A stretch of DNA of 64,000 nucleotides. Origin: a virus (Duplodnaviria > Caudoviricetes). The DNA lies in IMG/VR virus record IMGVR_UViG_3300021431_000003, positions 96,001 through 160,000 of that record, one strand, 5' to 3'. Shown piece after piece: positions 1-62,008 of this stretch. The notes beneath the pieces are model-generated. The model did not search any database, had not been told where the DNA came from, and saw only the letters and a program-made list of their open reading frames with translations. How positions within the stretch are numbered: position 1 is the first letter of the stretch; every line of letters begins with the position of its first letter. Position numbers and translations under genes: made by a program.

Positions 1-69
1 AATAGAAGGTAATACAACATTTATTACCTTACTATTTTTATTATATTGTTAGAATTATCTGTGATGAAA

Positions 70-1110
70 TTAGAATAGGTCATTATAATCGCTAGATATA
101 TTAGTAGATTCTTCTTGATAATCAGACATACTACTATCCGATACATCAAGCGATTGAACTTGGTTTGTATCATCGGGTTCTACAGGTACACCCTTTTCAT
201 CTTCTTCATTTTCTTCTTCTTTTTCAGCGTTACTTTTTCCACCATTTACGTTAGGAATATTATCAATGATATCAGCAATAGCATTTAAAGTAGCAATACA
301 TTGCTGATAGATAATATTATTCTCAATATAAGTTCTAGTAGAGTATGCAACAGTGATATTATAGTCAATCATTTCTCTAAGTTCAAGTAACTTCTCTGTT
401 ACAAACTTAAGAATATTAATATTATCATTAGATTTAGGAATGTCATTAATACGAACAAGTGTAGAACCGATAATAGAATATACTTCAATAAACTGATTCT
501 TTAACTCATGATTCTTAATAGCAATTTGTTCAGGAGTAAGAGAAGAGAATAATTCATCTTCAATTTTATTTAAATCATAATCTTCTCCATCTTCAGAGCC
601 TTCTTCACTAGTGTCATCAGTAGTTTCTTCACTACCTTCTTCACCAGTATCATCTCCACCTTCTCCTCCATCGCTGTCGTCCATGAAGTTATCAGATTCA
701 CCAGCACCTACATCATCTGTATCATCACCAGAACCATCGTCTGTGTCAGTATCATCTCCACCTTCTCCGTCATCCATGAAATTATCGGATTCACCAGCAC
801 CTACATCATCTGTATCATCAGTAGTTGTAGTGGTATCATCTCCATCACTAGAATCATCATCCATGAAATTATCGGATTCACCAGCACCTACGTCATCTAC
901 ATCATCAGTAGTATCATCTGCTGGAGGTGTAGTATCGCCAGCATTATCATCTGGAGCTGGAGTAGAAGAATCATCATTAGTACTTCCAGAATCATCCATG
1001 AAATTGTCGTTATCATCATCGTCGTTTTCGTTGTCAATTTGTTGACCACCGACATTGATTTCATTAACAACAGAACGCATCAGATTTCTATACTTATCTC
1101 TGTAATCCAT
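70..1110 (-). CDS. Highly acidic putative virion/head-assembly protein with repeated DDVGAGESDNFMDD motif
   Basis: 346-aa ORF, GGAGG RBS upstream, D/E-rich disordered N-half, helical C-terminal domain; downstream of a late-type promoter (3763-3774). Confidence 0.6.
   Translation of the reverse strand: MDYRDKYRNLMRSVVNEINVGGQQIDNENDDDDNDNFMDDSGSTNDDSSTPAPDDNAGDTTPPADDTTDDVDDVGAGESDNFMDDDSSDGDDTTTTTDDTDDVGAGESDNFMDDGEGGDDTDTDDGSGDDTDDVGAGESDNFMDDSDGGEGGDDTGEEGSEETTDDTSEEGSEDGEDYDLNKIEDELFSSLTPEQIAIKNHELKNQFIEVYSIIGSTLVRINDIPKSNDNINILKFVTEKLLELREMIDYNITVAYSTRTYIENNIIYQQCIATLNAIADIIDNIPNVNGGKSNAEKEEENEEDEKGVPVEPDDTNQVQSLDVSDSSMSDYQEESTNISSDYNDLF
680..1011 (-). repeat. Intragenic repeat: three near-identical 32-nt copies (680, 773, 860) and one partial copy (995) encoding VGAGESDNFMD
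   Basis: tccatgaa(g/a)ttatc(a/g)gattcaccagcacctac seen three times. Confidence 0.9.
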
Positions 1111-1124
1111 ATACTCACCTCCAA

Positions 1125-3731
1125 TTACTCATCTTTATCAAGTTTCTTACCAATCTTATCTGGCATATCATATTGTTTCTTTCCTTTAAATACATAATTC
1201 TTGTTATAAAGAATTCTAGCACGTTGTCTTTCAAGGTCACGTTTAGTCTTCATGATTTCTCTTACTGCAGTTAAATCTTCTTTATCTTCTGCAATCTTAA
1301 GATACTTATCACACATCTTAATCTCAATATCAATATCATCAAGAATTAAATTACGTTCTTTTTCATTAATAACTTTAGAGCATCCAATAAAACCAATAAG
1401 TCCAATTACTGCAAGTACTGGATTAATTAGATATGCTGCACCAGATGCAAGAGCAATATGAATACATTTAGATGCAGATGGTAAGAAAGACCCTCTGATA
1501 ATACTCTCTCTACTATCACTAATCATAGCTCTCTTGGCAGCCTTCATAGTACGATTAAGTTCACTATCAAGCTTCATAGATAATTGTTTATCTTTATCTT
1601 TGAGCTTAAGAGCAGTACGTCTTAGATTTTCAGAAGCAATCTTAAGCTTACTGGTAAACGACATACCAGAACCTTCTTTAGCTTCATTAATAGCAGAATT
1701 CTTATATCTAGTAACAAGTTCAAGAGTATCATTCATAATATCATGTTTACACTTAAGCTGTTCATACATAATATCTATTGGAGGAATTGTGTCATCATTA
1801 TTTACATAAGTACCCTCTAATAGATTATCATATTTCATCTTTTCTACATCACTAATACATGTTCTAATAGCATCAGCTCTTTGAACAGCACCGAGATAAG
1901 AACCTGAATAAGAATGTCTAGAACATGCTAATTCATCCTCTAGAATATTTATATATCTAGGGCAATCAAATACTTCATTACAAAGTTTAACAGCTTCAGT
2001 AATATTATAAATATCCTCATTAGACATACTACTAATATTATTATTAATAGTAGACATCAGTTCAGCCTTAGTAAAGTCAAGTTGTTCATATAGAGTTGCA
2101 AGCATACCTACATATTTAACAGATTCTTCAAAATCAAAGTCCATATCAAAATCGAAATTAAAGTCATCATCATCCATAGATGCTTCGGCTTCTTTAGCCC
2201 ATTTCTCTTCCATACGCTTATCATTTTCTGCATCTGTATATAGGTCATTCTCTTTCATCTCAAGTGTATCTGTATCTTTCTTATACTGCTTATATAATGC
2301 AGTATACTTTTCTTTTTTCTTTTCATCTTCTGTTTCATCAGCAAGCTTTTTATACTTATCTCGTTCTTTAGCATATTGCTCAACAACCTTAGCCATTTGT
2401 TCTCTAGATATCTTCATCTTTAAGAATAGGTCTGTAATAAGAGTAATAACACCTAATACAGGATTTATAGCAGTAGCTCCTAATACGGCACCTAGTCTTA
2501 CAAATTGCATAATATCTGGAAGTTCTTGAATAATAGCTTCTGGTCGTTGTACAAAGATTCTATTAATAGCATCTTTAAACTTATTGATATCCTTTTTGTG
2601 TTCTTTCTTGAAGTCATGAATAATCTTTTTGATTTTCATTTTGTCAACTTCATCTTTTTCTTTATTAGTCTTAACTCTCTTTTCTTTCCACTTTAAGAAC
2701 ATGTCATGAATCTTATTTTCTTCAAGAGATTCTAAATCATCATTTTCTAAAGCTTCAATAATAGCACCTTCATCTACCAATAGATAAGATACAGGTTCGA
2801 TATCTTCTTCTGTAAAGAATTTAGCATTCTCAAGAATGTACTTCATATCATGAAGTCTTTCATCTGTAGATTCTTCCATCAAAAAATAATCAGTTACAGA
2901 TTCAATAATAAATGAATTCTTCACAGGAATACAGTTTTTAGTCATTAGATACATAATATTCTCTAATGCAATATTGTACTTAACTCCAAAAGGAATATCA
3001 TAGCTTTCAATAAGAGTACATATATCATATATACACTTTTGAAGAGATACTTCATTTAACGGACATTTACGAACTCTAGATTCAAGATTATATCTCTTAG
3101 ATAATTTAGCATGATTATTAAGAACTCTATCACATTGTTCATTAACCCAAGCTGCTTGAATGAATCTATTATAACACTCCTCAGCAACTTCTTCTTTATT
3201 ATCTTGAGATTGTTCTTCATCGTTACCAGAATTAGTATTCTTAACCTCTCCCATTTTACGACCATAAATATCACGTTTATATTTTCTGTGTGGATGTAAT
3301 GAGTTACCTAGATAACCACCATTAGCTTTAGCTCTTTGAACTGCAGTTTCATTATCTTTAGTATCATTAAGCATAGCAGTATGTCTATGCTTAATCCAAC
3401 CACGTTTATAATTATTTAATTGTCTTGTCTGTTTAGCATTACGTAATTTAGGAATAATCTTTCCCTCAATTAGACTAGCAGCATTTTCGATATTAGAATC
3501 TGTATCATTATCTACAATCATTCCAAATACTTCTAATACTTTAGTCAATGCTTCTTCTTCATTGTTTGATAAGGCTTGCCAATTTTCTAATACCATCTTA
3601 GCTTTATTATATGAGTAATTTTCAGATAGTGTCTCATATACATGCGATATATTGCAATTGATATTAGATACGTAAGAATCTGTAATTAGATTTCTTTGGC
3701 GAGCGATAATATCCTTATGTGTAAGATTCAT
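1125..3731 (-). CDS. Large putative virion (internal head) protein
   Basis: 868-aa ORF, AAGGAGG RBS, late-type promoter; two hydrophobic 'INPVL(G/A)VI' segments each followed by coiled coil. Confidence 0.55.
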   Translation of the reverse strand: MNLTHKDIIARQRNLITDSYVSNINCNISHVYETLSENYSYNKAKMVLENWQALSNNEEEALTKVLEVFGMIVDNDTDSNIENAASLIEGKIIPKLRNAKQTRQLNNYKRGWIKHRHTAMLNDTKDNETAVQRAKANGGYLGNSLHPHRKYKRDIYGRKMGEVKNTNSGNDEEQSQDNKEEVAEECYNRFIQAAWVNEQCDRVLNNHAKLSKRYNLESRVRKCPLNEVSLQKCIYDICTLIESYDIPFGVKYNIALENIMYLMTKNCIPVKNSFIIESVTDYFLMEESTDERLHDMKYILENAKFFTEEDIEPVSYLLVDEGAIIEALENDDLESLEENKIHDMFLKWKEKRVKTNKEKDEVDKMKIKKIIHDFKKEHKKDINKFKDAINRIFVQRPEAIIQELPDIMQFVRLGAVLGATAINPVLGVITLITDLFLKMKISREQMAKVVEQYAKERDKYKKLADETEDEKKKEKYTALYKQYKKDTDTLEMKENDLYTDAENDKRMEEKWAKEAEASMDDDDFNFDFDMDFDFEESVKYVGMLATLYEQLDFTKAELMSTINNNISSMSNEDIYNITEAVKLCNEVFDCPRYINILEDELACSRHSYSGSYLGAVQRADAIRTCISDVEKMKYDNLLEGTYVNNDDTIPPIDIMYEQLKCKHDIMNDTLELVTRYKNSAINEAKEGSGMSFTSKLKIASENLRRTALKLKDKDKQLSMKLDSELNRTMKAAKRAMISDSRESIIRGSFLPSASKCIHIALASGAAYLINPVLAVIGLIGFIGCSKVINEKERNLILDDIDIEIKMCDKYLKIAEDKEDLTAVREIMKTKRDLERQRARILYNKNYVFKGKKQYDMPDKIGKKLDKDE

Positions 3732-61195: not shown

Positions 61196-61197
61196 TT

Positions 61198-61977
61198 ATG
61201 GCAATTGATTCTATTAAAGTAGAAGAAGTTCAACCTGATGGTAGTAAGAAAGAAATCAAAGTAGATAATGCTGCAGCTGGATATCATAATTATCTAGTTA
61301 TGTTTAATACTCTTATTGACCTTGATTTTGCTGTACTTAGAATGGTACAAGCTGAGTATAATAATCCTAAGTTTGTAGACCAGAAAGTCATGCATATGAC
61401 TACTAAAGAAGTTAAATTTCTTCTTATCAATAGAGAAGACCCTAACCCATTAACTATCTGCTTTAAAGATAAGAATATTGCCGATTCTATCTATAAAGAA
61501 ATTATGTCTACCAGATATGGCGATTTGCTTAAGGAAGATAAGTATATGGCAATCACTGGCATATTCTTCTTAATATCTGTATATGCTGCTATGGATAACA
61601 CGCATGTTACTGTAGTATGTGGAAATGAATTAGAAGAGAAAATCATAAGACGTTATCATAAAAACATTAACGTCAAAGTGGTCAATGCGTTAACTGACAT
61701 CGATGTAAATGATTATACTGAATTCATTTTCAAAAGTAAGTATGATGTATATAAGTTTAAACAAAAATTCATTGAGAAGCGACTTTTGTTATTAAACTAC
61801 AAATTCAATGTCTATTTTGATGATGGTATATTATTCTCTGATTTGGAACTTGGACATTGGTTATGGGAAACTGGATTCTCTAAAGCTGCAATCATTGATA
61901 CTTACAGTAAAGAAGATGAAGACTATGCTACCCTGAAATTCAAAAGAGTAGTAAAAAAGAAACCCGAAAACAAATAA
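61198..61977 (+). CDS. Hypothetical protein (possible degenerate HAD-like fold)
   Basis: 259 aa, AAGGAGG RBS; YLVMFNTLIDLD resembles HAD motif I without the catalytic Asp residues. Confidence 0.5.
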   Translation: MAIDSIKVEEVQPDGSKKEIKVDNAAAGYHNYLVMFNTLIDLDFAVLRMVQAEYNNPKFVDQKVMHMTTKEVKFLLINREDPNPLTICFKDKNIADSIYKEIMSTRYGDLLKEDKYMAITGIFFLISVYAAMDNTHVTVVCGNELEEKIIRRYHKNINVKVVNALTDIDVNDYTEFIFKSKYDVYKFKQKFIEKRLLLLNYKFNVYFDDGILFSDLELGHWLWETGFSKAAIIDTYSKEDEDYATLKFKRVVKKKPENK

Positions 61978-62008
61978 ATAATATTATATATTAAGGAGGA
62001 ACCGAAAT

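Follow-up and report, generated by a model that had tools for sequence, protein, structure and literature searches.

Bacillus phage AR9/PBS1 transcribes its late genes with a non-virion RNA polymerase (nvRNAP) that contains the subunit gp226 and recognizes promoters of the form AACA-N6-T(A/G) (PMC5449584, PMC9209446). Recognition requires template-strand uracil at positions -11 and -10; residue V206 of gp226 blocks the methyl group of thymine, and a V206G change lifts this block (PMC9209446). The tip of the AR9 beta' lid contacts the uracil at -8. Papers on AR9 place its close gp226 orthologs in uracil phages, describe the gate valine as absolutely conserved among them, and credit the need for uracil with preventing such a short consensus from acting as a promoter on host DNA. 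Here we analyze a related element, AAC[A/T]-N6-TAA, in a 64,000-nucleotide stretch of caudovirus DNA (bases 96001-160000 of IMG/VR record IMGVR_UViG_3300021431_000003, hereafter the window), and propose that it is an AR9-like nvRNAP promoter read on thymine DNA, a reading to which we assign a probability of about 0.84.

Other jumbo phages with deoxyuridine (dU) DNA are Staphylococcus phage S6, for which dU has been shown, and the Machias group and Listeria phage LPJP1, for both of which dU has been deduced. Like the phage studied here, S6 and LPJP1 have gp226 homologs and an enriched upstream AACA-N6-TA. The published mark of uracil phages is that they encode neither a thymidylate synthase (ThyA or ThyX) nor a dUTPase (PMC7824862). 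A more distant point of comparison is phiKZ (Chimalliviridae), which has thymine DNA, as is probable for the present phage, and resembles it in having a thymidylate synthase, a tubulin, two multisubunit RNA polymerases (RNAPs) and, in its nvRNAP subunit gp68, a distant sigma-like homolog, but differs in encoding chimallin and in its late promoter, which has TATG at the start.

The AAC[A/T]-N6-TAA element and its predicted polymerase

The virus record is complete (223,528 bp, with direct terminal repeats and 33% GC), and a simple in-house script that considers open reading frames (ORFs) and ribosome-binding sites called 196 genes in it, 65 of them in the window. When motifs were counted at -60 to -14 relative to a same-strand start codon, the element preceded 20 of the 65 window genes (shuffles, 4.7±2.1; antisense, 1) and 66 of the 196 genes in the genome (shuffles, 13.8±3.6 with a maximum of 22; antisense, 6). 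It peaks 32-41 nt upstream of the start and is found at 61 of 123 unit heads versus 5 of 73 internal genes, and variants with spacers of 5 or 7 nt show no positional peak. The enrichment over shuffled background anticipated in a preliminary description of this sequence therefore holds for position upstream of starts and not for raw number: the bare 12-mer has 114 matches in the window, below dinucleotide shuffles (161±12), and this whole-window comparison was rejected as the wrong test for a positional signal.

The same count applied to AR9 recovers the known motif (AACA, 59 sense and 5 antisense), and comparison of the two phages reveals where the consensus differs. Position -8 is A in AR9 and either A or T here; the AACT form, already suspected to be an added variant, is borne out by 28 sense and 3 antisense sites, and is unused in AR9 (5 and 6). 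The G at +1 that AR9 allows is unused, A at +2 is nearly fixed (68 of 74 sites, versus 36 of 89 in AR9), and only A is found at -11. In contrast to this strict A, the first motif position is relaxed in two relatives (G011 and G013, loci L208-L227), where CAC and TAC forms are enriched.

Because the motif is purged from coding DNA, kept at orthologous genes and placed ahead of tRNA genes, it appears to be functional. Relative to synonymous-codon shuffles, coding DNA contains 10 antisense copies instead of 39±6 and 40 sense copies instead of 67±8, a depletion that is weaker for 5- and 7-nt spacers and that is seen again, for the full motif, in one relative. In a relative of 83% median protein identity, 60 of 62 orthologous genes retain the element, as do 55 of 62 in one of 60%, while the spacer drifts; in the farther relative the A/T state at -8 is preserved in 93% of pairs (kappa 0.85, versus 0.18-0.37 at -5 to -2, with -7 and -6 also fairly conserved). 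The motif also lies 22, 20 and 17 nt ahead of tRNA-Lys, tRNA-Leu and tRNA-Gln, respectively; with initiation at the A of TA, the tRNAs would have leaders of 6-11 nt, a length compatible with such a start. Sorting of the two forms by gene function is a tendency only (AACA:AACT of 14:2 at virion genes versus 5:6 at replication and nvRNAP genes; Fisher p 0.03 in a small, hand-sorted set).

It could be argued that AT-rich leaders produce such a motif incidentally, or that the signal belongs to a host polymerase, as the 12-mer is common and its terminal TAA looks like a portion of a -10 box. This view has already been largely refuted by the shuffle, antisense and spacer controls, the purge from genes, the conservation at orthologs, the recovery of the AR9 motif by the same test and the existence of a phage-encoded reader, and we consider it extremely improbable. 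As judged from the sequence, AAC[A/T]-N6-TAA is a real AR9-type late promoter.

The predicted reader is a gp226-like sigma subunit, encoded on the minus strand at 34082..35662, that is 23% identical to AR9 gp226 over its full length. AR9 gp226 is the sole match of this family's profile in the Protein Data Bank (E 1e-27), a confident model of the subunit has 7s01 chain A (AR9 gp226) as its best fold match (E 5e-15), followed by phiKZ gp68, and tblastn with this protein gave, among cultured phages, matches to the AR9 group only. Four split beta/beta' core subunits are encoded outside the window, elsewhere in the genome, so that all five nvRNAP subunits are present (genome C1 19961-21682, 13682-15832, 187818-189413, 85267-87480 and 130082-131662), as is a virion RNAP. 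A putative early-type (virion RNAP) promoter at 35705..35714 on the minus strand, upstream of the gp226-like gene, matches the annotated AR9 early promoters with their TATATTAT core; because this gene has an early-type motif and both RNAPs are encoded, an AR9-like two-polymerase cascade is probably present. The five-subunit nvRNAP, the gp226 fold, AAC at -11 to -9, the six-base spacer, TA at the start and the early promoter are thus common to both phages, and the earlier proposal that this phage follows the promoter logic of AR9 is upheld by the gp226 homolog, the full nvRNAP set and the matching motif.

All 23 of the 12-mers in the preliminary description are present at the coordinates and on the strands it gave, and an additional A follows every one (23/23). 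Their placement at the heads of transcription units stands for 22 sites, which lie 32-113 nt ahead of a same-strand start (19 at 32-47 nt), and not for the AACA element at 6554..6565 (plus strand), which lies in a divergent gap (6554-6700) with no ORF within 200 nt and may precede a small RNA. On the minus strand, AACA elements are found at 39..50 (113 nt ahead of the start of the major capsid gene, just outside the window), 6513..6524 (a 315-amino acid protein), 16815..16826 (a 1104-amino acid probable sheath), 17595..17606 (an AR9 g125-like virion protein), 25492..25503 (an operon running into leucine-rich-repeat genes), 29144..29155 and 30374..30385 (an AR9 g165-like virion protein), and AACT elements at 3763..3774 (an 868-amino acid protein), 36522..36533 (an AR9 g227 homolog directly ahead of the gp226-like gene) and 59244..59255 (the terminase large subunit). 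On the plus strand, AACA elements precede genes for a DNA polymerase subunit (6710..6721), the portal (9862..9873), the baseplate wedge (37581..37592), an AR9 g112-like virion protein (41108..41119) and a GroEL-like chaperonin (61969..61980), as well as four uncharacterized genes (43191..43202, 52734..52745, 55415..55426 and 55848..55859), and another is divergent from the terminase promoter (59299..59310); AACT elements precede the N-terminal subunit of virion RNAP beta' (element at 25524..25535, gene at 25562-27397) and an uncharacterized gene without an ortholog in relatives (41932..41943). The sites at 29144 and 61969 extend into the stop end of the gene before them, and two further upstream matches, at 40391 and 60644 on the plus strand, were absent from the earlier list. 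The portal, terminase, chaperonin and baseplate wedge assignments are confirmed by matches to AR9 proteins (24-33% identity), and the sheath label was taken from AR9 gene order alone.

Thymidylate synthesis and the genomic base

The preliminary description also raised the possibility of a uracil genome, which predicts that a thymidylate synthase is missing and that a dCMP-type deaminase and a dTMP phosphatase are encoded; the outcome was the opposite on each. A Pfam scan of proteins without a prior AR9 match yielded a ThyX and a dCTP deaminase. The thyX gene lies outside the window (genome 36946-38109), after a kinase-like P-loop gene and downstream of an AACT promoter. Its 387-amino acid product scores above the TIGR02170 cut-off and retains its catalytic arginines and serine, with RHR, S-x-R-Y and the R174 equivalent all in place; its Pfam match is split, and a dN/dS of 0.28 indicates purifying selection. 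The dCTP deaminase belongs to the trimeric family and is closest to dUMP-forming enzymes, whereas the characterized deaminases of uracil phages are all metal-dependent members of an unrelated family and are accompanied by a dTMP phosphatase or a dTTP pyrophosphatase. Homologs of the AR9 dTMP phosphatase (gp151), Zn deaminase and gp238 kinase were found in S6 and LPJP1, and none was found here; a direct gp151 search was used for the phosphatase since PF06941 fails on the AR9 enzyme itself. Nothing in this genome matched PF00383, the metal-dependent deaminase family, and Ham1 and HD searches of it were empty, although a dTMP phosphatase or dTTP pyrophosphatase of an unrecognized family could escape these searches.

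The distribution of these genes among relatives follows the same division. Among 46 mostly near-complete IMG/VR genomes that carry a gp226-like subunit, 33 encode ThyX, 11 encode ThyA and none encodes both, and neither enzyme was found in AR9, S6, LPJP1 or Machias. The remaining two genomes (G011 and G013) were considered as possible uracil members of the clade and ruled out, as each has a dUTPase with a C-terminal RGGFG motif beside a dCMP deaminase. The promoter system works like that of AR9, yet the thymidylate synthase whose absence marks uracil phages is present.

Restriction-site avoidance provides another view of the genomic base, since the presence of dU confers partial or full protection from enzymes whose recognition site contains T. 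The observed/expected ratio of GATC is 0.12 here and 0.00 in each of two relatives, compared to 0.74-0.86 in AR9, S6 and LPJP1, in which the strongest 4-mer avoidance falls on GC-only sites; we treat GATC avoidance as only supportive of thymine. Across the whole genome CCGG has 0 sites and GATC, CGCG and GGCC are depleted, and one relative (G002, 219 kb) has no CCGG, CGCG, GATC, GCGC or GGCC site at all. In addition, pattern searches of IMG/VR gave 75 loci of this clade and the AR9 isolate alone for the dU type, a scarcity that agrees with the failure of dU DNA in standard library kits. Two metagenomic gp226 homologs (L281:3854-5290 and L283:7052-8536) have an AR9-like Y-S-D-x-x-x-W helix on contig stretches that keep GATC and are almost without GGCC and CGCG, as in dU phages, and these may represent uracil phages in metagenomes.

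One can envision a deoxyuridine genome whose promoter depends on uracil in the way that of AR9 does, with ThyX unused or put to another purpose and with unrecognized proteins that deplete dT nucleotides and prevent the repair of uracil. The consensus and subunit shared with AR9, the dCTP deaminase, the low GC content, the many genes without assigned function, and the Ile and Lys found at the positions of AR9 V206 and K375 would all fit, and the failure to find Ugi here carries little weight, as it was likewise not found in S6, LPJP1 or Machias. Nevertheless, ThyX, ThyA or dUTPase is present in 46 of 46 genomes, homologs of Dtm, Dtt and the Zn-type Dcd are missing, GATC is purged and the gate residue is unconstrained, which together make a uracil genome very unlikely.

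Equally improbable, in our estimate, is that a diverged ThyX makes another 5-substituted uracil, such as 5-hydroxymethyl-dU, that replaces thymine wholly or partly. The unusual length, split match and shortened motif of this ThyX invite the idea, and relatives of thymidylate synthase can produce modified pyrimidines. However, the interchange of ThyX and ThyA across the clade points to one common product, dTMP, no dTTP-removing enzyme was found, and T-containing restriction sites are still purged; even if this explanation were true, the base would not be uracil and the puzzle of the pocket would stay. The known dUMP hydroxymethylases are ThyA-like, which also counts against it.

Each line of evidence for thymine is limited, but all point one way. 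The genome is most likely thymine DNA, made by a predicted route from dCTP deaminase through dUMP, ThyX and a kinase whose genes are all present, and the alternative offered in the preliminary description, that of a natural counter-example to the uracil dependence of AR9, is the likely reading.

Recognition pocket, lid and strand

How the AR9 uracil pocket might be adapted to thymine can be considered by aligning its contacts. AR9 V206, which lies in helix 2.1bis and gates the -10 pocket, corresponds to I249 of the gp226-like subunit (codon 34916..34918, minus strand) in an ungapped register from K188-L-Y to the invariant W208, so that the valine conserved in uracil-dependent recognition is replaced by Ile, and a natural V206G solution is ruled out for this phage. 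The laboratory V206G mutant of AR9 gp226 is similar in accepting T at -10 (PMC9209446), but a natural Gly occurs in only 8 of 120 close homologs (the others include 33 I, 21 V, 20 T, 7 P and 6 D), and -11 must accept T as well. Clade-wide, more than 10 residues (K and Q among them) or a deletion occupy this position, which differs between close relatives with the same promoters, and the motif is enriched in every class (sense/antisense of 25/1 for G, 42/4 for V or I and 87/15 for other residues). Because position 206 varies so freely, its side chain appears no longer to act as a gate, and since no single V-to-G switch explains thymine reading, the pocket has probably been reshaped so that T is accepted, with residue 206 directed away from C5.

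Other changes surround this position. AR9, S6 and LPJP1 have Y202, D204, V206, I207 and W208 in common, and S6 and LPJP1 also keep the AR9 uracil toolkit and R363 of betaN, which together with K375 lines the -10 pocket; members of the clade mostly carry N at 204 and K at 202, have R at 214 without exception, and keep the short helix and W208. This phage departs from AR9 by D204 to N, Y202 to K, Y210 to I and betaN R363 to N, it retains the Lys at betaN K375, which varies even among dU phages, and it retains the non-template contacts S245 and Y246. In 5 of 5 aligned clade genomes, each of which uses AACT, the beta' lid is four residues shorter than that of AR9; in S6 and LPJP1 it is two shorter. 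The shorter lid of this phage probably loosens the contact at -8 and so admits AACT.

The retention of S245 and Y246, the loss of Y210 and betaN R363 from the template pocket and the deletion of position 206 in some relatives are also what one might expect if, on thymine DNA, AAC were recognized chiefly in the non-template strand, or by a different factor, and the AR9 template pocket did not itself accommodate T. We regard this as unlikely, though less so than the other alternatives: the short helix is retained together with W208, 11 of the 17 clade members checked still have R363, and the geometry of AR9 is reproduced by an invariant C at -9 and a spacer of exactly 6 nt.

Taken together, these features suggest the following series of events for an AR9-like promoter read through the template strand of thymine DNA. 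The virion RNAP would transcribe the gp226-like gene from its TATATTAT-type early promoter, after which the five-subunit nvRNAP holoenzyme would start at the A after T, 11 nt past the motif start, as predicted from AR9 and the tRNA leaders. The enzyme would read template-strand T at -11 and -10, where AR9 requires U, through a reshaped pocket in which, as alignments indicate, residue 206 may be no gate; the shorter lid would tolerate either base at -8, and the near-fixed A at +2 may contribute some specificity.

Several observations weigh against this proposal. Compared with the ThyX of T. maritima, the motif here lacks one residue, though it is fixed in the family, and the genome has no stand-alone dUTPase. 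AR9 too avoids some T-containing sites (GGTACC and CCWGG), and the hosts differ; the short search patterns behind the IMG/VR contrast differed in sensitivity. Like Val, the Ile at 206 is a beta-branched residue, and alone it would fit uracil selection, and lid length tracks the use of -8 imperfectly, as LPJP1 has a lid two residues shorter yet uses AACA only.

Relatives, other genes and significance

In a 10-protein tree this clade is separated from AR9, S6 and LPJP1 with full support, and the cultured Fusobacterium phage JD-Fnp4 falls outside both; single-gene trees with phiKZ leave the root unfixed. A PhuZ/tubulin-like gene (genome C1 10877-12172, L001) is found in 33 of the 46 clade genomes and is absent from AR9, S6, LPJP1 and Machias. 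As in AR9, chimallin was not detected: phrog_4795 matched phiKZ only and none of 30 clade genomes, although a very diverged shell protein could escape such a search. A 583-amino acid gene (38073-39824) was considered as a chimallin and found no support, its nearest named cluster being a baseplate family. The strong restriction-site avoidance suggests that the DNA is exposed.

JD-Fnp4 (L239-L247) has the AACA motif at 24 sense and 3 antisense sites and a TG form at 12 and 3, was sequenced with a standard kit, and strongly avoids T-containing restriction sites; neither a gp226 homolog (the specificity subunit) nor a thymidylate synthase was convincingly found in it. It offers a lead to the idea that the motif predates uracil, and it is an accessible test system. 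In a broader and more tentative scenario, which we consider doubtful as a whole, the clade would run the AR9 template-strand promoter on thymine, the motif would predate uracil DNA, uracil dependence would have arisen late in the AR9/S6/LPJP1 branch, and in this phage the base at -8, released by the shorter beta' lid, would sort promoters into two functional classes.

The anaerobic host put forward in the preliminary description is plausible, as the genome encodes a class III NrdD and a radical-SAM/4Fe-4S activase-type match. A host search via ThyX gave a single close match, a 212,719-bp contig (CAADXH010000018.1) from a Bacilli metagenome-assembled genome that carries the same long ThyX (46% identity) and, judging by its size, is probably a mis-binned phage of this clade. 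A ~340-nt insert (window 45360-45700) with elements resembling a group I intron divides nrdD into two ORFs; Rfam gave nothing for it at gathering score. Behind the promoter at 25492 lie BspA-type leucine-rich-repeat genes (window 20092-24884), with Pfam LRR_5 matches among the window proteins, and two AIPR-family matches, unusual for a phage, occur among proteins in the part of the genome that includes window 47888-52653.

A literature search found no description of an AR9-type promoter in thymine DNA. The element is an AR9-type late promoter with a pair of sequence changes, the AACT variant and the near-fixed A at +2, in a genome that is most likely thymine. If this is true, the gp226-like proteins (627 clusters) found in phages with a thymidylate synthase and the same motif would break the link between gp226 and uracil, and neither the motif nor gp226 would predict uracil DNA. 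The finding also raises the question of how a phage with thymine DNA and no detectable nuclear shell keeps this polymerase from the host chromosome, and it would make natural variants of the recognition pocket available for comparison with the AR9 structure.

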